Source of the DNA: Armatimonadota bacterium
GTDB taxonomy: Bacteria > Armatimonadota > Fimbriimonadia > Fimbriimonadales > Fimbriimonadaceae
DNA: 52,450 bases
Direction of reading: 5' to 3'
NCBI GenBank assembly: GCA_031400935.1
Contig: JANNQV010000020.1
Coordinates: forward strand, 62,001-114,450
Part shown: in pieces, positions 5,819-18,708 of the stretch
Numbering within the stretch: the first letter of the stretch is position 1
Layout of the letters: each line of letters begins with the position of its first letter
Translations under genes and position numbers: made by a program
Notes under the pieces: generated by a model
Databases searched by the model: none
The model's input: the letters and a program-made list of their open reading frames with translations, nothing else
What the model was told of the DNA's origin: nothing

Positions 5819-6988
5819 ATGCGTTTCAGTACAAAAGCATTGAGAATTTCTCAGGATCCGCGGTTCAATACGTCAGCAGTTGTCAATCCGATTGTTCAAT
5901 CAACAACTTTTCTCTTTGACAATCTGGACGAGATTCCACCTCATGATTACACGAGAGTTTCGAACCCAAACCGAACAAATCTCGAGGCAGTTTTGGCTAG
6001 TTTGGAAAACGCCGCGCATTGCGTTGTGTATTCCAGCGGAATGGCGGCCGTTACGGCTGCGTTCGCGCTGCTGGAGCACGGCGATCACCTTCTAATGGCG
6101 CAGGACATCTATGGTGGAACGCACCGGCTTGTGAATACGGTTTTGCCAAAGCAAGGCATTTCTTGCACCGAATTTGATGCGAATGATCCAGAAAGCATCC
6201 GAAAGGCGATTCAGCCGACATCAAAAATGCTTATCTTTGAAACGCCAACGAATCCTAAGCTCCGCGTCAACGACATTGAAGCCATTTCTCGCATCGCTCA
6301 CGAATATGGCTTGACCGTAGTTTTCGACAACACGTTCGCATCGCCTTACTTAGTGTGTTCGCTAGATTTGGGTGCGGATATCGTAATTCATTCGACGACG
6401 AAGTATATCTCCGGCCACAGCGATGTGATTGGTGGAGCCGCGCTGACCAACGACGCTGACATTCATTTGAAGCTATTTGAATACATTAAAACTACAGGTG
6501 CTTGCCCAAGCCCTTTTGATTGCTGGCTATCCCTTAGAGGTCTAAAGACTTTAGCTGTGCGAATGAGACAGCATTGCGAGAACGCTCAAGCGGTCGCTGA
6601 ATGGCTTACCAAACAACCTAACGTAGAGTGCGTTTACTATCCGGGATTGCTCGGGCACCCTGACCACGAAGTTGCCAAACGGCAAATGCCAAGGGGCTTT
6701 TCGGGAATGGTTTCCTTTGAAGTCAAAGGAACATGGGAAGACACTCGAAGGGTTTGTGAAAACACAAAGATCTTTCAAATGGCAGAGAGCCTAGGCGGCG
6801 TTGAATCGCTAATCGGTGCCCCGCGAGTCATGTCTCATGGGGCAATGACAGAGGAAGAGCGGCTCGAAAGGGGAATTCAACCGACCCTGATTCGCCTAAG
6901 CGTCGGAATCGAGGATGCGGAAGACCTGATCGAAGACTTGGCGCAAGCTCTCGCGCTCGTCAAACCTCTCGCTGCCTCTAGAACTTAG
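5819..6988 (+). CDS. Cystathionine gamma-synthase/gamma-lyase family PLP enzyme
   Basis: YTRVSNP, SSGMAA, ETPTNP, DNTFASP, PLP-lysine HSTTKYISGHSD, AESLGGVES, RLSVGIED. Confidence 0.92.
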   Translation: MRFSTKALRISQDPRFNTSAVVNPIVQSTTFLFDNLDEIPPHDYTRVSNPNRTNLEAVLASLENAAHCVVYSSGMAAVTAAFALLEHGDHLLMAQDIYGGTHRLVNTVLPKQGISCTEFDANDPESIRKAIQPTSKMLIFETPTNPKLRVNDIEAISRIAHEYGLTVVFDNTFASPYLVCSLDLGADIVIHSTTKYISGHSDVIGGAALTNDADIHLKLFEYIKTTGACPSPFDCWLSLRGLKTLAVRMRQHCENAQAVAEWLTKQPNVECVYYPGLLGHPDHEVAKRQMPRGFSGMVSFEVKGTWEDTRRVCENTKIFQMAESLGGVESLIGAPRVMSHGAMTEEERLERGIQPTLIRLSVGIEDAEDLIEDLAQALALVKPLAASRT

Positions 6989-7393: not shown

Positions 7394-7492
7394 GTTGCGT
7401 ATTACTCGTTACTCTCAGTGTAACGGAAAAGATTCAAAATTGCAAATTCTGAAAAGGAACGCAGACTTTAGTCTGCATCTGGACCGCAGGCT

Positions 7493-9670
7493 TTAGCCTG
7501 CGCCTTTTCCCGCCTTCAATTTTTTCTTCGGATTGGCTCCGTTCCCATTGTAGATAGCTTTTGATTCTGCAGCGATGAGCTTGCGATTAGTTGATTCCGA
7601 TAGCGGGCAAGGAGACAACGGCTTTCTGCGTTCCTTCGGAATTTCAATTCTCTTTAGGCCGTTCAGCCACCTCGCCGTCCCCACTTCCGATTTCAAAAAG
7701 AGCTCAAGCGGCCCTTCATTGATGATTTCCCCGCCATGCTCGCCAGCGCCTGGCCCAATGTCAATCAGCCAATCTGCAGCTCGCATCGTTTCCTCATCGT
7801 GCTCGACTACGATGACCGTATTTCCCAAATCACGAAGTCGTTGCAAAGTTTCAATCAGCTTTCGATTGTCCCTTTGATGCAGCCCAATGCTCGGCTCATC
7901 AAGAATGTAAAGGCAACCCATAAGCCCCGAGCCAATTTGAGTTGCTAATCGAATTCGTTGCGCCTCCCCGCCTGCCAGGGTTCTAGCGTTTCGGTCAAGA
8001 GTTAAATATCCGAGTCCGACATCTTTAAGAAAGGTAAGTCGCTCGGAAATCTCTTTCACCGCCCGTTCGCCAATCACCAATTGCCTTGAGCTCAAAAGGC
8101 TCGGGAGGGCTGTGAAGTATTCCTGTGCGGTGTCTACGGACATTGAGGAAATTGTGGCGATGGATGTGCCTACTTGAACTCCTCCCCCAACTCCCTCCTC
8201 TTTCTCCTTCGTCGAAAAAGGAGGAGGCTCTTTAGCCCCTCCCATATCCGAGGAACGAGGATGAGGGAGGGGTTGGGGAGGGAGTCCGGGCGATGGAAGT
8301 CGAACACTTAACGTCTCCGGCTTCAGCCTTTGCCCCTTGCAAACTGGGCAAGGTTTGGTGGATTGGTATTGCTCCAAATCTCGCTTAACCCACTCGCTTT
8401 CTGTTGATTCGTAGCGCTTTTTGAGGGCGGCGAGAACACCATCCCATTTGGTTTGAAAAACACGCTCAGTTTTGCCGTAATGCATGATTACGTCAATTGG
8501 TTTTTCAACTCCAAACCAGACAGCGTTCATGCCTTCTTCTGAAATCAAATTGACTGGTGAAAACGAATCAAATCCTACAGATCGTCCAACGCCATCCAGC
8601 ATTTCCGGCCACCAGTCCTTTACCTCGCCGCTTTTGTAGACAAATGGAACAATCGCACCGTTTCGTAGCGATTTTGAGAGATCGGGGCAAACTAGATCAG
8701 GGTCAAATTCGGTTTGGGTGCCGAGTCCGGTGCAAGTCGGACAAGCTCCATAGGGAGAGTTGAACGAGAACATTCTCGGCTCGAGTTCAGACATTGAGAA
8801 ACCGCATTCGGCGCAGGCGTACGATTCGGAAAAAGTTTGTTCTCCTTGCGTTGCTTGGGCGTCCCGCCCAGGTCCCGAATCTGCATCTGAGGCTTTCTTT
8901 CCTTTCGTTTTCTTGGGCGAGACGCCCAAGCCACTCAAGCCGCTTTCAGGCATCTCATAAGCCAGAGTCACCAACCCCTTGCTCATTTTCAATGCCGCCT
9001 CAACTGAATCCGCCAACCTGCGCTCAACCCCTTCCTTCATCACCAGACGATCCACAATCACTTCGATTGTGTGCTGTTTGTAGCGATCCATCGGGATGTC
9101 GTCGGTTACTTCATACATCTCGCCATCCACCCGAACACGAACATAGCCAGCCTTTGCAGCATCCTGGATCACCGACTTGTATTCACCCTTTCGTCCCCTC
9201 ACCAATGGTGCAAGCACTTGCAATTTCGTTCCTTCTGGATATTTTCGAGCCGCATCTACAATCTGGTCCGTGCTTTGCCTTTCAATTGGGCCGTGACCGT
9301 TCGGGCAATACGGAATCCCCGCCCTAGCGAATAAAATTCGGAGGTAATCGTATATCTCTGTTACGGTTCCAACAGTTGATCTTGGGTTCCTTGATGCCGA
9401 CTTTTGATCAATTGAAACCGCCGGAGAGAGCCCCTCGATATGGTCAACATCAGGCTTGTCTAACTGTCCCAAAAACTGCCTTGCGTAGGAGCTGAGCGAT
9501 TCTACGTACCGCCGCTGCCCTTCGGCGTAAATCGTGTCAAAAGCGAGGCTCGATTTCCCACTGCCGCTAAGCCCAGTGATGACGACAAGCTTGTCGCGAG
9601 GAATTTCCACAGTGATGTTTTTTAGGTTGTTCTCCCTCGCTCCGACGACCACGATTTTGTCTTGCGGCAT
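7493..9670 (-). CDS. uvrA: Excinuclease ABC subunit A, N-terminal half only (ATPase domain I, UvrB-binding and insertion domains)
   Basis: GARENNLKN, Walker [30 protein letters not shown] zinc modules, [16 protein letters not shown], Walker [20 protein letters not shown]; homology ends at [10 protein letters not shown], followed by a ~40-aa unrelated tail. Confidence 0.95.
8178..8285. repeat. Palindromic C/G-rich repeat doublet inside the uvrA reading frame
   Basis: Two imperfect hairpin arms in inverted orientation around ggct-cttt-agcc; encodes [36 protein letters not shown], absent from typical UvrA. Confidence 0.75.
8850..8934. repeat. REP-like inverted doublet inside the uvrA reading frame
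   Basis: 8850-8872 gttgcttgggcgtcccgcccagg versus reverse complement of 8912-8934 gtggcttgggcgtctcgcccaag: 20/23 identical, each a hairpin with a GTGG/GTTG foot. Confidence 0.85.
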
Positions 9671-9756
9671 TTGGATATTCTACTCGGAAGGAGTAGACGG
9701 AAGTGTATGGGTTTGGGAAAATTCCTCCTCTAGTGAACGAACCCACAGGGTAACGA

Positions 9757-10320
9757 TTCCCTCCCCCTTGAGCGAAGCCATGGGGGAGGGCTAGGGTGGG
9801 GGCTCTTCTTCGTCCTCTTCAAAGTCCGAATCCTTCCACCATGGCTTAGACTTCTTCCTCAAATCAACAAACAATTGAATCTCTCGAATCCAATGCTCCT
9901 CTCTGTTCTCGAACTCGCCAAGTGGAATTCGAAGAGTCTGAATTCCCATTTCCAACAATGCTTCATCTCGTTTCCTATCTGCTAGTGGTTCATGAAGCGG
10001 ACCGTTCAATTCAATGCACAGTCGAGCTTCCAAAACATAGAAATCGAGGATGAAATTTCCGGAGGGGAATTGCCGTCTTACCTTGAACCCGAGAGCGTTG
10101 CCTCTGAGTCTGCTCCAAAGAACACGCTCACCTCGCGTCATTCCTGTTCGAAGTTTTCGGGCAAGGTCTCTGCGGTCTTTGTCAGTACTGCGGACAAAGC
10201 GCATGAAACTAAGTTCGTTGTTCTTTTGAGGGATTCCTTTTCCCCCACCCTAACCCTCCCCCGTGGCTCAAATCTCGGGCGCTCAAATATCCTGCGTAAG
10301 TTCGCTCACGGGGGAGGGAA
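9757..10320. mobile_element. Putative element: DUF559 nuclease gene flanked by hairpin-containing inverted repeats
   Basis: Arm 9757-9802 matches reverse complement of 10242-10320 at 43/46 positions apart from a 33-nt insertion in the right arm's loop. Confidence 0.6.
9791..10204 (-). CDS. DUF559 / Vsr-like endonuclease domain protein
   Basis: [60 protein letters not shown] follow the DUF559 pattern (ExDG appears as ELNG). Confidence 0.88.
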
Positions 10321-11059
10321 CATTGGGGCTTGAGTCGGATTGCGCCTCAGCCAACTGGTCTCGCACGCTGGATTTAGCACTTTCTTCCAAAGTCTCTTCA
10401 ACCGCACCAGTCAGCTTATCCGCGAGTTTTTCAGCCGAATTTTTTGCAGAACGAACTCCGCCTGTCAAAAACCACGAACTGAGTCCGACCAATCCCGCCA
10501 AGACACCAATTCCCGCACCAACCAATCCCTTGGAAATTAAGACAGGTCCAAATATCGCACCGAACATCGCCGATTGGAATCCAAACACGATCGGCATAAC
10601 GGGAAAAGAATCAACTTTGACTTTCGTCCGGCCGCTTCGCGAAGTCACAGAGACCTGGGCTGTGCCCATCCCGACCTGAACTTTGGCAGTCAGGGTTCGC
10701 CCGACTTGCGCAGGAAGCATTTGGCTGTTGCCTTGCGGCAATTGTGCCGACACTAGGTCAAAATCATTCGGATCAAGTTCGCCGTCAATGACTCGCTCGA
10801 TTTCGGTTTTGAGCGCAAACCAACTTCGCTTTTCAGGTTCAAGTTTTCGAACTTCTACTAAAGCCTTCTGCAGAGCTGAAATCGAAATCCCCATTTCGCC
10901 CGCAATGCGTTCAAGCTCTTCTCGCGTAACGCCTGGGGTGTACTCTTGGTTGCCCGTAGTTTCCTGAAGCTCGACTGCCCGGCGCATGATTTTGCCTACC
11001 TCGGCTTCGCTATAGATTTCCCTTCGGTTCGGCATTACTGATTGTAACCTAGTTGTCAA
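10283..11059 (-). CDS. Hypothetical membrane protein (two C-terminal TM helices)
   Basis: 258-aa ORF overlapping the nhaA stop; YSEAEVGKIMRRA / ELERIAGEMGIS helical N-domain; start may be ATG 11035; last residues are encoded by the repeat arm. Confidence 0.7.
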   Translation of the reverse strand: MTTRLQSVMPNRREIYSEAEVGKIMRRAVELQETTGNQEYTPGVTREELERIAGEMGISISALQKALVEVRKLEPEKRSWFALKTEIERVIDGELDPNDFDLVSAQLPQGNSQMLPAQVGRTLTAKVQVGMGTAQVSVTSRSGRTKVKVDSFPVMPIVFGFQSAMFGAIFGPVLISKGLVGAGIGVLAGLVGLSSWFLTGGVRSAKNSAEKLADKLTGAVEETLEESAKSSVRDQLAEAQSDSSPNVPSPVSELTQDI

Positions 11060-12263
11060 CCGAATTCGATTTCAATTGCTGATCGCTTCGTGAGCAGGCT
11101 TTAAGCCAAATGAATCCTACAATCGCAGAAACCAGAGAGCCAAGAAGAATTCCAATTTTCGCTAAAGGCAGTGCTTCGGAACCTGAAATAGCCAATTCCG
11201 CGATGAAAAGCGACATTGTGAATCCGATTCCCGCCAAGAAACTCATTCCTGCGATTTGAGCCCAGGACACCTTATCCGGAAGCTGGCCGAAATTTAACTT
11301 CGAGGCAAACCAACTGAATCCGAAGATTCCAAGAGGCTTTCCGACGAAAAGGCCGAGTAGGATTCCAAGAGGAACACTTTGCTGAAGAGTCGAAACGGTA
11401 GTGCCGTGGAAAGCGACGCCGGCATTGGCAAGTGCGAAAATTGGCACGATTCCAAAGGCAACCCAAGGATGGAGTATGTGGATGAGGCGGTCTATGGGGG
11501 ATTTCGTGGAACAGGATTCATCCTGTTTTTGCGAAGCAACAGGAATCAAAAGCCCAACGAGTACCCCAGCTACCGTCGCATGAACACCAGAGTTCAAAAA
11601 GCACCACCAAACCGCAACACCAGTTAACAAATAAACGAAGAGCGCTTTAATGCCAATTCGCTTTGCAACCACCAACCCTCCCAGCAATATTCCTGCCACG
11701 CCCAGCCATTCCCAATCAAGACTCGAAGAGTAGAAAACCGCAATAACTAAGATCGCCCCAAGGTCATCCACGATCGCTAAAGCAGTTAGAAACACTTTTA
11801 GGCCGATTGGGATGCGGGAACCTAGCAGCGCAAGAATTCCAAGGGAAAACGCAATGTCGGTTGCCATAGGAATTCCCCACCCTCGCACAAACGGTGTTCC
11901 GCGATTGAACGCAAAGTAGATAAGCGCGGGAACGATCATTCCGCCAATTGCGGCAGCGATGGGCATCGCAGCTTTCTTGAAAGTTGATAGCTCTCCTTGA
12001 ACCAGCTCCCGCTTTATCTCAGCCCCGGCAACCAAGAAAAAAATCGCCATAAGACCATCATTGATCCAATGCAGCAGGTTCAAATGGGTACCTGGAAGGG
12101 AGAGGTCGGTTTGCAAAAACGCAACAAAATTGTCTACCCAAGGGGAATTGGCCAAAACCAAGGCAATGGCTGTCGCCAAAATGAGAACGACTCCGCCAGC
12201 CGATTCAAGTTCAAAAAACTCGGTGAACGAGGCTCGTAGCCGTTTTCGAATTCCTCCGCGCAT
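11049..12263 (-). CDS. nhaA: Na+/H+ antiporter NhaA
   Basis: WINDGLMAIFF, EIKRE, GWGIPMATDIAF, LAIVDDLGAI, GKPLGI, GIGFTMSLFI. Confidence 0.96.
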   Translation of the reverse strand: MRGGIRKRLRASFTEFFELESAGGVVLILATAIALVLANSPWVDNFVAFLQTDLSLPGTHLNLLHWINDGLMAIFFLVAGAEIKRELVQGELSTFKKAAMPIAAAIGGMIVPALIYFAFNRGTPFVRGWGIPMATDIAFSLGILALLGSRIPIGLKVFLTALAIVDDLGAILVIAVFYSSSLDWEWLGVAGILLGGLVVAKRIGIKALFVYLLTGVAVWWCFLNSGVHATVAGVLVGLLIPVASQKQDESCSTKSPIDRLIHILHPWVAFGIVPIFALANAGVAFHGTTVSTLQQSVPLGILLGLFVGKPLGIFGFSWFASKLNFGQLPDKVSWAQIAGMSFLAGIGFTMSLFIAELAISGSEALPLAKIGILLGSLVSAIVGFIWLKACSRSDQQLKSNSVDN

Positions 12264-12320
12264 GGCTCAGGTTATTACGTTTGAACCTGGCGTTAGGTTG
12301 CCTTTGCAGCTAGCGAAGCC

Positions 12321-12788
12321 TCATTTTAGGGATACAGAATCAATGGAGAACTCGACGATCTTGCCAATGCCGTTCTGATTTCGAACGGCAAATGTGAGTA
12401 TCCCTTCGGCTTTTTCGAACGAAGCATTAAAGGTGTAACGACTCGTGGTAACTCCGTTGTTATAGCTGGAATTGAACCCAGTTGCATTGCCAATGGCCTC
12501 AAATTTGCCGAGCCTGTCCCTGTAGGCCGCCATCGCAACCTTAAATTGATCTAATTGAATACCTGAGAAGATAGAGGCATCAAAGTAGTTTGCGACAGAG
12601 TCGAATTCGTAGTTTGAGTCGCTCATTTTTGTCATCACTTCGGATGCAAAAGGAGCTTTGCTTTGAGCGGATTCCATTCCGGTCTTAAAGAAGAAATATC
12701 CTCCGCCAACTACGCCCCCGCAACAGAGAAGCATGAATGCAGCGATTCCACCAAGAATCCAGGGGAGTTTTGATTTGCCTTGTGCCAT
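12321..12788 (-). CDS. Hypothetical membrane-anchored protein
   Basis: N-terminal TM with LLCCGG motif followed by a small soluble domain; co-oriented with tyrS and nhaA. Confidence 0.7.
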   Translation of the reverse strand: MAQGKSKLPWILGGIAAFMLLCCGGVVGGGYFFFKTGMESAQSKAPFASEVMTKMSDSNYEFDSVANYFDASIFSGIQLDQFKVAMAAYRDRLGKFEAIGNATGFNSSYNNGVTTSRYTFNASFEKAEGILTFAVRNQNGIGKIVEFSIDSVSLK

Positions 12789-12866
12789 TTGATTCCTTTC
12801 AATTGCGAACTTTGAATTGCTTTATCTTACTGAGTTTTGAGCACATTTGCCTCAATTACAAAAGAA

Positions 12867-14063
12867 CTACACTAGCTTGCGAAACTGATGCTTCCCGACC
12901 TTCAAAACCTTACCTTTTAGGTCGTCGAGCGACAGTTTGACAAACGAATCTTCAACCTTCAACCCATCTAAAGAAACTGCCCCAGCTTTGATCAGGTCTC
13001 TTGCTGCACCGTTTGACTTAGCCATTCCAAGGGTGCCGATCAAATTTGCAAGCGGAACCAAACCGTCAACAACCAAATCGGCTGGAACCTGGGCTTCTTC
13101 TGCTTCAACAGGCTGCTCTCGCTTGCTGAAAGTCGTGACAAAATACTCGTTTGCGTCTTCAGCAGCTTCAATCGAATGGTAAAGGGCGACAATTTCCCTT
13201 GCCAAACGCATCTTGGCATCCCGTGGGTTCTTGACTTCACCAAGCATTTCCCGAACCTCATTCATCGGAACATCGGTGCAAAGCTCGAACCAGTTTTCAA
13301 TAGTGGCATCAGGAATGGACATCGTCTTGCCGTACATCTCGTTGGGTGAATCCACAACCGAAATGTAGTTGCCAAGCGATTGCGACATCTTTTCTTTGCC
13401 ATCGGTGCCGACCAGAAGCGGGCAGAGCATTACCACTTGAGGCTCTTGTCCGTAATGGCCTTGTAAATCTCGCCCGACTAGGTTGTTGAACTTTTGGTCG
13501 TTTCCACCAAGCTCAATATCAGATTCCACAGCAACTGAGTCATAGCCCTGGCAGAGTGGATATAGGATTTCATGCAGGGCAATCGGACGGTGCTCATTCC
13601 AACGGTTTGTGAAGTCATCTCGCTCCATGATTCGGGCGACCGTAGTTTTTGCGGCGAGTTTGATGACTTCGGCAAACCCCATCGGTCCGAGCCAATCGCC
13701 ATTGAAGCGAATTTCGGTTCTATCGGGATCGAGAATCTTGTAAACCTGCTTGCTGACTGCCTCGACGTTTCTTTGGACTTCTTCGCGACTGAGTTGTGGA
13801 CGGGTCTTGCTCTTTCCGCTCGGGTCGCCGATCATCGCAGTGAAATCGCCAATGATAAGAACGGCGGTGTGCCCTAGCCTTTGAAAATCCCTCAGCTTCC
13901 TCAAAACTACTGCCCAGCCAAGGGTCACATGAGCGACTGTCGGGTCAACGCCAAGCTTGACCCTAAGCGGTTTGCCGCTTTTGAGCTTTTCTGCAAGATC
14001 GGCTTCAGAAATGATCTCGCTCGTCCCTCTTCGGAGTAAGGCTAGCTGTTGTTCGATGGTCAT
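12867..14063 (-). CDS. tyrS: Tyrosine--tRNA ligase with variant signature motifs
   Basis: KLGVDPT, IGDFTAMIGDPSGKSKTRP, YPLCQGYDSV, ELGGNDQKFN, C-terminal S4 domain KVGKHQF; HIGH=TLGW, KMSKS=KMSQS. Confidence 0.95.
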   Translation of the reverse strand: MTIEQQLALLRRGTSEIISEADLAEKLKSGKPLRVKLGVDPTVAHVTLGWAVVLRKLRDFQRLGHTAVLIIGDFTAMIGDPSGKSKTRPQLSREEVQRNVEAVSKQVYKILDPDRTEIRFNGDWLGPMGFAEVIKLAAKTTVARIMERDDFTNRWNEHRPIALHEILYPLCQGYDSVAVESDIELGGNDQKFNNLVGRDLQGHYGQEPQVVMLCPLLVGTDGKEKMSQSLGNYISVVDSPNEMYGKTMSIPDATIENWFELCTDVPMNEVREMLGEVKNPRDAKMRLAREIVALYHSIEAAEDANEYFVTTFSKREQPVEAEEAQVPADLVVDGLVPLANLIGTLGMAKSNGAARDLIKAGAVSLDGLKVEDSFVKLSLDDLKGKVLKVGKHQFRKLV

Positions 14064-14129
14064 GGAAGGGAGAATTGTACCGTCTGAGATCGTAGCAACC
14101 CCAATTTCAAGTTCCGCATAAAGCCCTGG

Positions 14130-15824
14130 TTACAAACTCGGCCGCAATTTCCAAAAATCGGTGCGCATCTGAATCTGTGCGCCAACTCCCAAAATCGTCC
14201 CTTCGTCATACAGCCGCCCAATTAGAGAAATGCCCCGCGGTGCCTTGTTCTTATCCACCCCGAAAGGAATGTAGAGTTGCGGATGACCGGTGAGGTTTGT
14301 GATGAAGAGCAGATAACTCCCCCGATCCCCTGCAATGATCAGATCAAAATCGCCAAGTTCCTCTTCAAATTTCTGCATGAGCAAAGTTCTTGCACGCATG
14401 GCTTGAATGTAGCCGACTCCCGTGCAAAATTGGTGATTTTTGAAAATCCCCGGCCAAGCACTGCTTGATATCGTGTCCACCCTCTTATCGCGGGTGATCT
14501 CTTCAAATGCTGCAGCCGCTTCGACGGATAGCACGTTGTCAATGCCATCCGCAGGCTGGGTGAACTTGATTGGCTTGGGATCAGCTCCAAGTTCACGAAG
14601 TAACTTCAGGGCATCGTCTGGTCCGTTACCAGTATCGTCCTTGTCGAGTGCTTTGTCGTCTGATAAATAGCCAATTTTCAGCTTCTTGAGGTCAACATCT
14701 GGGCGAAACTTGAAAGGACGATCCACAGAAGCATTGTCCCGAGGATCCGCGCCATGTATCGCAGCCAAAACCAGGGCGCAATCCTGTGCGGTACGGCAGA
14801 TCGGCCCGACTTTGTCCATGCTCCAGCTTAGTGCCATCGCTCCATGGCGACTAATTCTTCCGAAAGTCGGACGGAAACCAGTAACCCTGCACCGATGCGA
14901 AGGAGACATGATCGAGCCAAGCGTTTCCGTTCCAATCGAAAATGCCGCCAAACCCGCCGCCATACAGCTTGCGGAACCAGCAGATGATCCGCTCGAGCCT
15001 TGCGCAGTATCCCACGGATTCTTGGTTCGACCATCGAACCAATGGTCGTTCATCGCTAGGGCGCCCAGGCTGGATTTAGCAATTAACACCGCTCCAGCGT
15101 CGTCAAGCCGTTCGATGATCGCGGCATCATAATTGAGTACTTGATTACGAAAAGGCTCTGCCCCCCAAGTCGTGGGATACCCTTTGGCGGCAAATAGGTC
15201 CTTGATTACATACGGAATCCCGTGAAGCGGACCTCGGTATTTCCCTGCTTTGATTTCTTCATCCGCCTTTTTCGCCATCGCTCTTGCTCTTGTTGGAGTG
15301 ATTGAAATCACGTTCAACAGCGGAATGCCATATTGGTTGATCCGGTTCAGATACAGTTCGGTAAGTTCAATTGGTGAAATCTTCTTGTTTTTGACCAACG
15401 CCGCAAGTTCGTAAACGGGCAAAAATGCTAAATCTGCGCTTCCGCTTGGCCGCATTTCAAGCGTTCCCTTAGAAACTTTTACATCGGTCTTGTTACCTTG
15501 CTCCGCCTGTTTCCCAAATGGCACAAATGGCGTTGGAGGAGCAACTGAGTTTTCGATTTTTGTTCCCCGTACGGAGGCATATCCCGTTCTATATTCCTTA
15601 AGGTCGTTGAGTACGGCCTTTCGCTCCGCTTCCGTTAGGCTGAAGCCAATGATCTTTTCCATAGCAATTACATCTGCGACTGTAATGTCCTCAGGGTTGA
15701 TTGCAGCCTTAGTTTGAAACTCCTTTGCGCTTGCCAGAGCCGAACCAGAAAGCATTGCTGTTCCGGTTGAGGCAAGTGCGAGCCTCAGAAATCCTTGGCG
15801 AGTGAGAGAAGTGTCTAAGCCCAT
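14130..15824 (-). CDS. Amidase-signature family enzyme with Tat-like signal
   Basis: GPLHGIPYVIKDL, GSSGSSAGSA, IGTETLGSIMSPS; N-terminus LTRQGFLRLALA. Confidence 0.9.
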   Translation of the reverse strand: MGLDTSLTRQGFLRLALASTGTAMLSGSALASAKEFQTKAAINPEDITVADVIAMEKIIGFSLTEAERKAVLNDLKEYRTGYASVRGTKIENSVAPPTPFVPFGKQAEQGNKTDVKVSKGTLEMRPSGSADLAFLPVYELAALVKNKKISPIELTELYLNRINQYGIPLLNVISITPTRARAMAKKADEEIKAGKYRGPLHGIPYVIKDLFAAKGYPTTWGAEPFRNQVLNYDAAIIERLDDAGAVLIAKSSLGALAMNDHWFDGRTKNPWDTAQGSSGSSAGSASCMAAGLAAFSIGTETLGSIMSPSHRCRVTGFRPTFGRISRHGAMALSWSMDKVGPICRTAQDCALVLAAIHGADPRDNASVDRPFKFRPDVDLKKLKIGYLSDDKALDKDDTGNGPDDALKLLRELGADPKPIKFTQPADGIDNVLSVEAAAAFEEITRDKRVDTISSSAWPGIFKNHQFCTGVGYIQAMRARTLLMQKFEEELGDFDLIIAGDRGSYLLFITNLTGHPQLYIPFGVDKNKAPRGISLIGRLYDEGTILGVGAQIQMRTDFWKLRPSL

Positions 15825-15863
15825 TGGGATTCAAATTCGTCGTTGGGAAGAAAAATCCTGCTT

Positions 15864-16045
15864 TATGGGGTACAGGGTATGGGGTTTGGGGTGCGGGTTC
15901 ATTCGAATCGTTCGCGTCGCATATTGCCTCTTTATTGTCCTTTAGAGGTCTCTAGGTTGTAGTTTGGTTGGGTCCATAGCGACAACTGCGACCATAGTGC
16001 CAAGCAACGACCCAGCTCCCCATACACTAAACCCTAATCCCAAAC
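15864..16045. repeat. Inverted pair of short heptamer tandem arrays
   Basis: tatgggg-tacaggg-tatgggg-tttgggg-tgcgggt (15864-15898) and ccccata-cactaaa-ccctaat-cccaaac (16018-16045). Confidence 0.65.
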
Positions 16046-16060
16046 AGGTAAATTCTCTTC

Positions 16061-16156
16061 GGGAGCGAATGGGTGCTGGTGTGCCCTCCGGTCTTCAAAA
16101 CCGCGTATGACGTCGCAAAGGCGTTGGGTGGGTTCGATTCCTACACGCTCCCGCCA
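16061..16156 (+). tRNA. selC: tRNA-Sec (anticodon TCA)
   Basis: Anticodon loop CTTCAAA (TCA 16095-16097), 6-bp D-stem GGGTGC/GTGCCC with 4-nt TGGT loop, long variable arm, T-arm GTGGG-TTCGATT-CCTAC, G discriminator and encoded CCA; 96 nt. Confidence 0.95.
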
Positions 16157-16171
16157 GTCCTCTTTGTTTGA

Positions 16172-16308
16172 TTTTGGGAGTGCATGCGAGCATCTCGCCG
16201 CTTTAGCCAGCTTCCTAAAGACCAAAATACTTCCAACATCTTTGATAGGAAGGATTTTGGAGCAAGGAACTCTATTGAAACTTCGTCCGACCGCGCGCAC
16301 TCCCAAAA
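16172..16308. repeat. Second copy of the GGAGTGC-tagged MITE/REP-like element
   Basis: Terminal IR ttttgggagtgc (16172-16183) / gcactcccaaaa (16297-16308); 20-nt identity with 2957-2976 and shared acatctttgat downstream. Confidence 0.8.
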
Positions 16309-16388
16309 CCCTTCGGAAACCAATTTTCTCAAAAAGCGTTGAACGATTTACGGGAAATCCGTTACTATAATAAATAGGAGGGAAAATT

Positions 16389-17546
16389 GTGAATGTCCTT
16401 CGTAATCTAGTATTGATTCTTTCGGTGGGCGCGGCATTATCCGGATGCAGCCCAACACCTGAAACTCAGGCAGCAGACCTGCCGCCGCCGACTGCCCATA
16501 CGGCTCAGCTTGCCGATCTTGGCTTTTCAGTTGCCAACCCGGTTTCAAGCGGGAACGTGAAACTGATCCCCATTGTTTCGACCAGTTCTAATCCAGTTTT
16601 GGACAAAGACGTTGTCTTTTTGGCAGAAGCCAAAGAAAAAGGCTATATCGAAATCACGGAAGGCGAAATGTCCTTCAATGGCGTTCACGTCAAAAACACG
16701 AGCAAGCATCACATTTTGCTCATGGCAGGCGACCTGGTAACTGGTGGCCACCAAGACCGCGTTATTGCGCACGACATCATGATTCCGCCAGGTGAAGAAC
16801 GAGACGTTGAAGTTTTCTGCGTGGAGCAGGAACGTTCCACCGGCCCAACTGCCGTTTTCACTCCTTCTGAACAGCCAGTTCCTCACAAGGTTCGTCGCGA
16901 AGCTATGTTCGCTCAAGACAAGCAACAAAGCGTTTGGAGCTCAGTTGACTCGTACAACTCTTCTGCTGCGGCTGCACCAGCCACTCGAACTGTTCAGGGC
17001 GGGCTCAATTCCGAGCAAGTCCAGAAGCACGTTTCGGCGAACGAAGAAGAGCTTTTGTCTAAGTTGATGGCGGTGAAAAACGTAACAGGCTACGTCTTGA
17101 TCGTAGATGGAAAAATTGACATTGCAGAAGTTTTCGGAGACCCGGGGCTCTTTGAAAGAGCCGCTCCCCAGCTTTTGAAGAGCATTCTAGCTCAGCAGGC
17201 AACCAAGATTTCAACCAAACCAGATTCGTTTGCAATGGCAGGAGTCGAGGAGTTCTTGGTTTCGGCATTGACTGGGAAGCGGGAGGCGCCGTCTAGGTCA
17301 AATGACTCTGAAATTGCCATGTTTGAATCTCCGAGAGCAGGCGAAAGAAACAGGAATCTAAATCTACAAACAGAATCAGGGCGGGATCCAACGCTTCGCT
17401 CTCCTCGCGGCACAGAAACGATTGCTCCAAGCGGTGACTTTGAAGTTCGTTCCAACAAAGATATTCGAGGCTACGAACTTTACGACTCGTCGAAGAACAA
17501 GGGAGCCAAAGGCAAACTTCTTCATGGAACGTATGCAAAGCCGTAA
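16389..17546 (+). CDS. Lipoprotein with ARPP-1/DUF6569-like domain
   Basis: SD aggagg before GTG; lipobox LSGC; LLMAGDLVTGGHQDRVI..VEVFCVEQER and QQSVW motifs. Confidence 0.7.
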   Translation: MNVLRNLVLILSVGAALSGCSPTPETQAADLPPPTAHTAQLADLGFSVANPVSSGNVKLIPIVSTSSNPVLDKDVVFLAEAKEKGYIEITEGEMSFNGVHVKNTSKHHILLMAGDLVTGGHQDRVIAHDIMIPPGEERDVEVFCVEQERSTGPTAVFTPSEQPVPHKVRREAMFAQDKQQSVWSSVDSYNSSAAAAPATRTVQGGLNSEQVQKHVSANEEELLSKLMAVKNVTGYVLIVDGKIDIAEVFGDPGLFERAAPQLLKSILAQQATKISTKPDSFAMAGVEEFLVSALTGKREAPSRSNDSEIAMFESPRAGERNRNLNLQTESGRDPTLRSPRGTETIAPSGDFEVRSNKDIRGYELYDSSKNKGAKGKLLHGTYAKP

Positions 17547-17560
17547 TGTTTCGTTAAAGG

Positions 17561-17589
17561 GGAACTTCATTTAATGAAGAGTTGTTGAA
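17561..17589 (+). promoter_or_regulatory. ECF-sigma-type promoter GGAACTT-N16-GTTGAA
   Basis: GGAACTT 17561-17567 and GTTGAA 17584-17589 in intergenic DNA. Confidence 0.45.
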
Positions 17590-17593
17590 AAGA

Positions 17594-17656
17594 TCAGATT
17601 ACTCCTCCCCTCTCTTAACCCGATTCCGAAAGCAAGACGGAATCGGGTTCTTTTTT
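17594..17656 (+). ncRNA. Candidate ~60-nt small RNA with C-rich seed
   Basis: Lies between the ECF-like promoter and a strong terminator; contains ctcctcccctctc; no ATG in this stretch; 5' end is an estimate. Confidence 0.35.
17617..17656 (+). terminator. Rho-independent terminator
   Basis: Perfect 12-bp stem aacccgattccg/cggaatcgggtt, 9-nt loop, then cTTTTTT. Confidence 0.85.
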
Positions 17657-17703
17657 GGTGAGGATTGGAGTTTTTATTCTGTTTCTGATATACTCCTGTC
17701 CAC

Positions 17704-18708
17704 ATGTCAGATTCGTGGATTGTGCTCCGCAACGCCAGAGGCAACAACCTCAAAGGGATTGACATTGCTATTCCTAGAAGTCTTTTCACGTGCGTTACCG
17801 GAGTCAGCGGAAGTGGCAAGTCCACTTTGATTCAAGACACGCTTTTCCCGCGCCTCATGTACGAAGTGTACGGAACGCGCGGAGTTTGGTCGCCGCATGA
17901 TTCCATCGAAGGTGTCGAGGAAATTGACAAAGTCATTGACATTGATCAGTCACCTATCGGGCGGACTCCTCGAAGCAATGCAGCAACCTACATCGGCGTT
18001 TTCGATATGATTCGAGACTTATTTTCGCTGACTCCGGACGCCAAAATGCGAGGATACAAAACCGGACGGTTTAGTTTTAACGTGAAGGGCGGAAGGTGCG
18101 AGCATTGCAAAGGCGACGGAATCATCAAGATCGAGATGGTTTTCCTCCCAGATGTCTACGTCCCTTGCGAAATCTGTAAGGGCAAACGCTACAACCGTGA
18201 GACGCTTGAAGTTCGTTACAAAGGAAAAAACATTTCGGAGATTCTTGGTATGACCGTAGAAGAGGCTGAGGAGTTCTTTCGCCCAATCCCAAAAATCCAC
18301 CGCAAAATTTCAACTCTTCAAGAGGTTGGTTTGGGTTACATCAAACTCGGCCAGCCAGCCACAACGCTTTCGGGAGGTGAAGCGCAAAGGGTGAAACTTT
18401 CGGAAGAACTTTCCAAGAGATCAACTGGCCGCACCATCTACATTCTTGATGAACCGACAACCGGCTTGCATTTCGAAGATGTTGATAAGCTGCTTCAAGT
18501 GCTTCACCGATTGGTTAACCAAGGCAACACCGTTATCATCATTGAGCATAACTTGGATGTGATCAAGACCGCCGATTGGATTATTGACATGGGTCCAGAG
18601 GGGGGAAATGCTGGAGGTGAAATTGTCGCCATGGGCACGCCGGAAGACGTTGCGAAGGTTAAAGGAAGTTGGACGGGCAAGTATTTGAAAGATGTACTAG
18701 TCCATTGA
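17704..18708 (+). CDS. uvrA: Excinuclease ABC subunit A, C-terminal half only (ATPase domain II with zinc finger)
   Basis: NARGNNLK, Walker [71 protein letters not shown]; own ATG. Confidence 0.95.

Follow-up and report, generated by a model that had tools for sequence, protein, structure and literature searches.

We analysed a 52,450-nt stretch of DNA from an Armatimonadota bacterium (Fimbriimonadaceae; GenBank assembly GCA_031400935.1, contig JANNQV010000020.1, positions 62,001 to 114,450), hereafter the window, in which the gene for the excision repair protein UvrA lies in two pieces on opposite strands. An earlier note, made from the letters alone, had placed one open reading frame (ORF) for each half of the protein, and both were recovered at the places and sizes it gave (lengths in amino acids, aa):

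7493–9670, minus strand: uvrA N-half, 725 aa, with ATP-binding domain I, signature domain I, the UvrB-interaction and DNA-binding insertion domains and the start of the linker
17704–18708, plus strand: uvrA C-half, 334 aa, with ATP-binding domain II, signature domain II and the C-terminal zinc finger

Against the TIGR00630 profile, the N-half accounts for positions 1–608 and the C-half for 609–924. On the structure of Clostridium thermocellum UvrA (PDB 9gxk), residue 685 of the N-half is the last to align, at chain residue 630, and residue 4 of the C-half is the first, at chain residue 632; there is no overlap and one residue is unmatched, just as the note had described the cut. Pfam placed UvrA_inter (PF17760) at aa 132–237 and UvrA_DNA-bind (PF17755) at aa 323–434 of the N-half, both above cut-off. 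Walker A, Q-loop, signature, Walker B, H-loop and cysteine pairs were all found in frame in both modules, and the note's Walker motifs, signature, H-loop and zinc ligands thus stand without a frameshift. With the NF001503 model, the N-half scores 832 bits and the C-half 607 bits against a cut-off of 1147. Halves below such naming cut-offs mean that genomes of this kind may be scored as lacking excision repair; one standalone C-half (P0080) is deposited as a “hypothetical protein.”

Neither an intact uvrA elsewhere nor a misassembly, both raised in the note, came to light. The assembly (67 contigs, 95.6% complete) contains no further uvrA, the other 31 matches to the UvrA profile reaching at most 34 bits, and uvrB, uvrC, lexA, and recA are all intact in the genome. 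Both the stop of the N-half and the start of the C-half are spanned, with 0 differences, by contigs from two public sequencing runs (X1 and X2); the C-half start is also spanned by a contig of low depth from a third run. Runs X1 and X2 may be the source of the window's DNA, and this check bears on the assembly, not on the spread of the split.

Spread and conservation of the split

Among named loci, the three that match the C-half best (78–81% identity) are labelled Fimbriimonadales, Fimbriimonadaceae, and Armatimonadetes, and in named locus L074, the C-half likewise occupies its own frame. Named loci may duplicate genomes of the survey and were left out of the counts. We examined 134 genomes, each at least 90% complete, of family f1, by inference Fimbriimonadaceae. 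A C-half match at a threshold of E 1e-150 was present in 129 (5 of the 134 had none at that threshold); its frame was at most 552 aa long, the split form, in 106 of the 129 and 969–1056 aa long, the one-chain form, in 23. The conservation of the split among relatives, a point left to be checked by the note, was thus borne out, with the same cut in 106 of the 129 genomes scored. Among the matches listed, which leave 128 weaker ones outside, nearly all N-halves stop at profile positions 607–619. Just the two halves were found in 90 of the 134 genomes (a hand count over the best 6 candidates per genome), and uvrB was present in 39 of 40 relatives.

The split also occurs in genomes assembled as a single contig (G009, G012, G047, G049, G131, G145, and G150). 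The halves take up varied arrangements: 1.7 Mb apart on a single contig (G131), in tandem with 20 nt between them (G024), convergent and overlapping (G007), coupled via an ATGA overlap (G150), or separated by one in-frame stop (G139). Two points weigh against so simple a picture. Among the 106, at least G105 and G117 may be cut by contig ends, and a few split genomes carry a second UvrA, full length in G068 and as shorter paralogs in G047, G060, and G081. One genome has a duplicate N-half (G016), and in another, a full C-half is flanked by two partial extra copies (G131:C1:2143159-2156120). Two genomes of 1.5 Mb from genus g49 (G122 and G123) show, among the matches listed, a UvrA match from profile position ∼403 to 924 in frames of 878–891 aa, which may be a single chain whose insertion domain has changed.

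When 24 of the 39 standalone C-half loci and 20 standalone N-halves were set beside one-chain genes in alignments, Walker A, Q-loop, signature, Walker B, and H-loop proved invariant. Cysteines C132, C135, C155, and C158 of the C-half and C310, C313, C441, and C444 of the N-half are likewise invariant, and a cysteine pair near aa 122 is variable in split and one-chain genes alike. Compared with its congener G001, the C-half is identical at 321 of 332 aa with ∼80% DNA identity, and aa 501–684 of the N-half are identical at 177 of 184 aa with ∼82% DNA identity (DNA values converted from mean column identities of 90% and 91%, respectively); the DNA differences fall mostly at third positions. These figures, which are pairwise comparisons and hand counts, point to strong purifying selection on the halves. 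Conservation throughout the family, invariant motifs, and mostly silent divergence together support a real two-gene UvrA that is maintained without an intact back-up.

An assembly artefact or a decaying pseudogene might be suspected in a 67-contig assembly, and single broken uvrA genes do exist in the phylum (G207, G269, and G142). However, the identical cut recurs in 106 genomes from ∼38 genera (hand count), single-contig genomes included, the divergence is mostly silent, the motifs are invariant, and contigs run across both gene ends. We regard this explanation as refuted, with a practically negligible chance of being correct.

Other families of the order differ in where, or whether, the chain is cut. 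UvrA is a single chain in 3 of 3 genomes of family f2 and in 17 of 17 of family f5 (16 of 16 without G305). In a sample of the phylum outside f1, 115 of the 124 genomes with a UvrA match carry it in a frame of 944 aa or more; 7 of the 9 shorter frames reach a contig end, and the remaining 2 (G207 and G269) have single breaks elsewhere. These two were considered as further splits and rejected as apparent single breaks; among the 24 of its class, G269 alone is broken near the linker. The whole-genome survey covered Armatimonadota; the search for C-half homologues returned mostly fragments at contig ends and yielded no figure for splits in other phyla. In family f4, 1 of 24 genomes has a one-chain UvrA, and in 23 a piece begins at profile positions 235–246; the complementary piece, from 1 to ∼240, was found in 21 of those 23, mostly on other contigs, and G039 holds the two pieces 1.0 Mb apart on a single contig. 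This cut lies just after the UvrB-interaction domain and separates the first module's Walker A from its Walker B, which come to lie on different chains. All 6 small pieces that were aligned retain their motifs, and the large piece begins 6–7 nt after a TATAAT-like hexamer (e.g., L067 in G037; L026 and L068 in G039). The f4 cut is independent of the f1 cut and means that even the first UvrA module is divisible.

Start regions and a candidate SOS operator

The regions ahead of the two halves hold the following elements:

9693–9708, minus strand: candidate LexA/SOS box upstream of the N-half, its right half-site GTCTAC conserved in relatives
9677–9682, minus strand: −10-like hexamer lying 6 nt ahead of the N-half ATG, without a Shine-Dalgarno motif
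17688–17703, plus strand: candidate LexA/SOS box immediately before the C-half ATG, sharing bases with a −10-like hexamer at 17689–17694

The earlier note had given each half its own ATG and −10-like box. The hexamers hold, at 6 nt (N-half) and 9 nt (C-half) before the ATG and kept in relatives, but a strict sigma-70 scan returned 0 promoters at either half's start. The N-half start would be of the leaderless type. Upstream alignments revealed a box of the form GTA(G/T)AC-N4-GTC(T/C)AC ahead of both halves. The N-half box stands ∼25 nt ahead of its ATG; that of the C-half adjoins the ATG and lies over the −10-like element. Among 39 standalone C-half loci, 19 carry the exact half-site GTCNRC right before the start ATG, and 10 more show variants visible by eye. 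The GTAGAC half-site adjoins the −35 element in 11 of 14 lexA promoters, half-sites occur at this genome's recA and uvrB, and a box with one mismatch lies over the start of its DNA polymerase IV gene (dinB; L212 1501–1516).

On this distribution, which includes lexA promoters at L196 and L219–L232, we consider it reasonably likely that GTAGAC-N4-GTCTAC is the LexA operator of Fimbriimonadales, which makes it the candidate SOS operator of this group. Several results weigh against that assignment. Of the 39 C-half starts, 37 of which were read, 8 show no box; 5 of these 8 are in genus g60, where a purine-rich, Shine-Dalgarno-like stretch stands instead. A reading for G021 taken on the wrong strand was left out. 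Genome-wide, the box pattern gave 14 strand hits vs. 24 for the reversed control, a classic SOS gene was found at only 1 of 6 other box sites inspected, and a perfect palindrome occurred in 0 of 246 loci. Two patterns of fixed spacing proved too strict, each finding 2 loci. In the literature searched, we found no paper on a LexA binding motif in an Armatimonad and no relevant paper on leaderless starts in Armatimonadetes.

The note had supposed that the halves could be regulated separately. Because both carry the palindromic box that is also present at lexA, recA, and dinB, joint SOS control appears more likely than separate control. In the congener G001, GTCNRC marks an old C-half start that now has a repeat insertion behind it. 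There, the repeat sits close behind the old start (L053 1928–2010) and gives rise to a 22-codon ORF, the stop of which overlaps a new GTG start; this looks like a rescue of the C-half by translational coupling.

Proposed origin and working of the two-chain UvrA

Split and one-chain forms occur side by side within five genera (g6, g8, g39, g44, and g60), a rare case for a core gene in which fission and re-fusion can be traced. The one-chain gene of G089 stands nearer to the split gene of its congener G006 (88% identity) than to the one-chain gene of G014 (76%). By eye, common residues or a common insertion also link G041 with G008, G152 with G143, and G075 with G047 and G049. In g39, several one-chain genes have long linkers rich in Lys that resemble split N-half tails and look like read-through tails. 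Since the split genes of g6, g8, and g39 have the box-plus-ATG start in common with those of many other genera, the simplest reading is one fission followed by at least three re-fusions, and we consider a single early fission with later re-fusions likely. This history is drawn from shared motifs and genus labels; against it stand several one-chain genes with linkers of ordinary length, which may be the old state and fit its retention equally well.

Set against a single origin, the converse history would have a maintained and functional split arise repeatedly at a fragile linker, with the one-chain genes as the unbroken old state. The presence of both forms in five genera and the ordinary linkers fit it, palindromic repeats readily insert into uvrA here, and f4 provides an independent cut. 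However, the operator-plus-ATG start is common to split genes of many genera, including the mixed g6, g8, and g39, and several g39 one-chain linkers resemble N-half tails. Weighed against a single cut, we consider repeated origin rather unlikely; it concerns the history alone and is compatible with the assembly proposed below.

PMC12796330 describes both ATP sites of UvrA as composite, built from N and C parts, and gives ATP-binding domain I as the dimer interface. Because both ATP sites form between the halves, neither half is expected to hydrolyse ATP in the manner of UvrA alone. The note's “one gene per ATPase” thus holds insofar as each half carries one ABC module and fails insofar as it implies a complete active site in either half. 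By analogy with this architecture, noncovalent pairing of N- and C-halves into an N2C2 complex very probably best explains why both motif sets are kept throughout the family. The earlier note had proposed a functional alpha2-beta2 UvrA; its maintained two-gene UvrA without back-up stands, and the alpha2-beta2 assembly is drawn from known UvrA architecture.

The overall course of events that we consider highly probable is an early single cut, co-induced separate halves, N2C2 assembly, and later re-fusions. One early cut of uvrA in Fimbriimonadaceae would have fallen at the surface linker between the two ABC modules. The C-half would then have acquired a −10 element, a start codon of its own, and the SOS operator used in the family, leaving the halves free to move apart. 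The two proteins would be made separately, with DNA damage inducing both together. Noncovalent N–C pairing would rebuild the proximal and distal ATP sites, and N–N contact would give the dimer. The resulting N2C2 complex would find lesions and load UvrB as ordinary UvrA2 does. In some lineages, halves lying in tandem would have been re-fused, several times over.

The halves might instead form no obligatory UvrA and act alone or swap partners, for example with C-halves pairing among themselves or with DNA damage triggering a switch in assembly. Each half comprises a whole ABC module and a putative promoter of its own, G131 has extra partial C-half copies and G016 a duplicate N-half, and the tryptophan at C-half position 5 is present in 24 of 24 standalone C-halves vs. 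12 of 18 one-chain genes of the family. However, the halves are 66–83% identical to one-chain relatives and have gained no new domain, they co-occur in nearly all genomes, and the same box stands at both; we hold this alternative to be unlikely. A broader conception, speculative and barely less doubtful, would make Fimbriimonadales UvrA a modular, assembly-controlled sensor, with a chain that can be cut at two loops and rejoined. Here, a −10 element and an ATG would suffice to found a new gene, and the C-half would be an exchangeable subunit (distal ATP site, signature II, and zinc finger), the supply or release of which would switch lesion search on and off under a previously undescribed LexA operator.

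Rejoining of the halves into one chain, by a split intein, RNA trans-splicing, read-through, or programmed DNA inversion, appears very improbable. Inverting the 7.6–17.7 kb block would set the window's halves head to tail, and a single in-frame stop is all that separates the halves of G139. However, Pfam shows no intein domain, the C-half begins at once with the opening strand of its ATPase domain, and the N-half tails of 6 to ∼40 aa are unconserved and often Lys-rich, with no motif in common. Rfam yields only a tRNA-Sec and two weak hairpin matches. No inverted repeat links the two half ends, no contig joint connects them (in contigs only, from which rare forms drop out), and the halves of relatives are in tandem, convergent, or megabases apart. 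Contig joints were found at 6000/16172 and 15894/7453; they do not join half ends, and we took them as repeat matches from elsewhere in the genome.

The pair of halves resembles class I UvrA (TIGR00630, NF001503; PDB 9gxk, 2r6f, 3pih, and 3zqj): once joined, it has every domain, catalytic motif, and cysteine pair, arranged in the same order, and uvrB and uvrC are intact in the genome. It differs from that single polypeptide of ∼940 aa in comprising two genes on opposite strands, cut at the linker, with no other copy. As in double-length UvrA (NF001885, 1809 positions), the chain boundaries of a four-module UvrA complex are shifted; that type, however, has two or four modules per chain, whereas here there is one module per chain, and the cut falls inside the monomer. 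Myles and Sancar reportedly cut E. coli UvrA at the same interdomain hinge in 1991 (Biochemistry 30:3834), giving fragments of ∼70 and 35 kDa; those were a laboratory construct, and the present halves are a natural gene pair. Natural fissions without splicing are represented by cyanobacterial rpoC1/rpoC2 and by phage nrdA cut by mobE. In these, too, an essential enzyme exists as two pieces cut at a surface loop, but the UvrA split has no endonuclease gene at the cut, both states within genera, and a second cut site in the order. ABC transporter subunits, Rad50, MutS, and RecF bring their two modules together as dimers of separate chains. Like the halves described here, they would form composite ATP sites between two chains; unlike them, they are mostly homodimers or old heterodimers, whereas here a fused UvrA would have reverted to a heterodimer within one family. 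PMC12796330 counts these proteins among the members of the ABC ATPase family.

No report of a split uvrA was found in the literature searched, which comprised titles and the starts of abstracts for part of the matches, with subscription journals mostly outside. The natural two-gene split thus appears new relative to known class I UvrA and, by every sequence test applied, functional. A natural two-chain UvrA would mean that the linker is dispensable. Unlike a single chain, two chains allow wild-type and mutant halves to be mixed, labelled separately, and followed for subunit exchange.

Inserts and neighbouring genes

Further features within the N-half and around the two halves are these:

7496–7615, minus strand: Lys-rich, unconserved tail of the N-half, 40 aa (6 to ∼40 aa in relatives)
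8170–8300, minus strand: palindromic repeat inserted in frame in the N-half, ∼aa 459–500, with 36 other matches in the genome
8845–8939, minus strand: second in-frame palindromic repeat in the N-half, ∼aa 238–277, with 21 other matches in the genome
16389–17546, plus strand: ARPP-1 (PF20208) lipoprotein-like gene upstream of the C-half, from Pfam
9791–10204, minus strand: DUF559 gene directly upstream of the N-half, a neighbour outside the split, with inverted repeats at 9776–9802 and 10242–10268

The N-half is longer than those of its relatives because of the two genome-wide palindromic repeats inserted in frame; it ends in the unconserved tail. The insert at aa 238–277 sits in the loop at which UvrA of family f4 is cut. 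Shorter inserts at the first repeat site in five relatives (G009, G012, G016, G017, and G024) suggest an older insertion that is decaying. At 7461–7501 lie two short palindromes resembling REP elements, one overlapping the N-half stop codon, with 5 further copies in the genome. The repeat at the stop was considered as one end of an inversion and rejected, as it has no partner near the C-half.

In G047, a gene of the ARPP-1 family follows the N-half on the same strand, whereas in the window, ARPP-1 precedes the C-half; the opposite orientation of the window's two genes is therefore probably the result of a later inversion. The 27-nt inverted repeats of the DUF559 gene (9776–10268) share the C-rich/G-rich type of the in-frame insert, and this gene is possibly the mobiliser of the in-frame repeat. 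A tRNA-Sec lies at 16061–16156 of the window.

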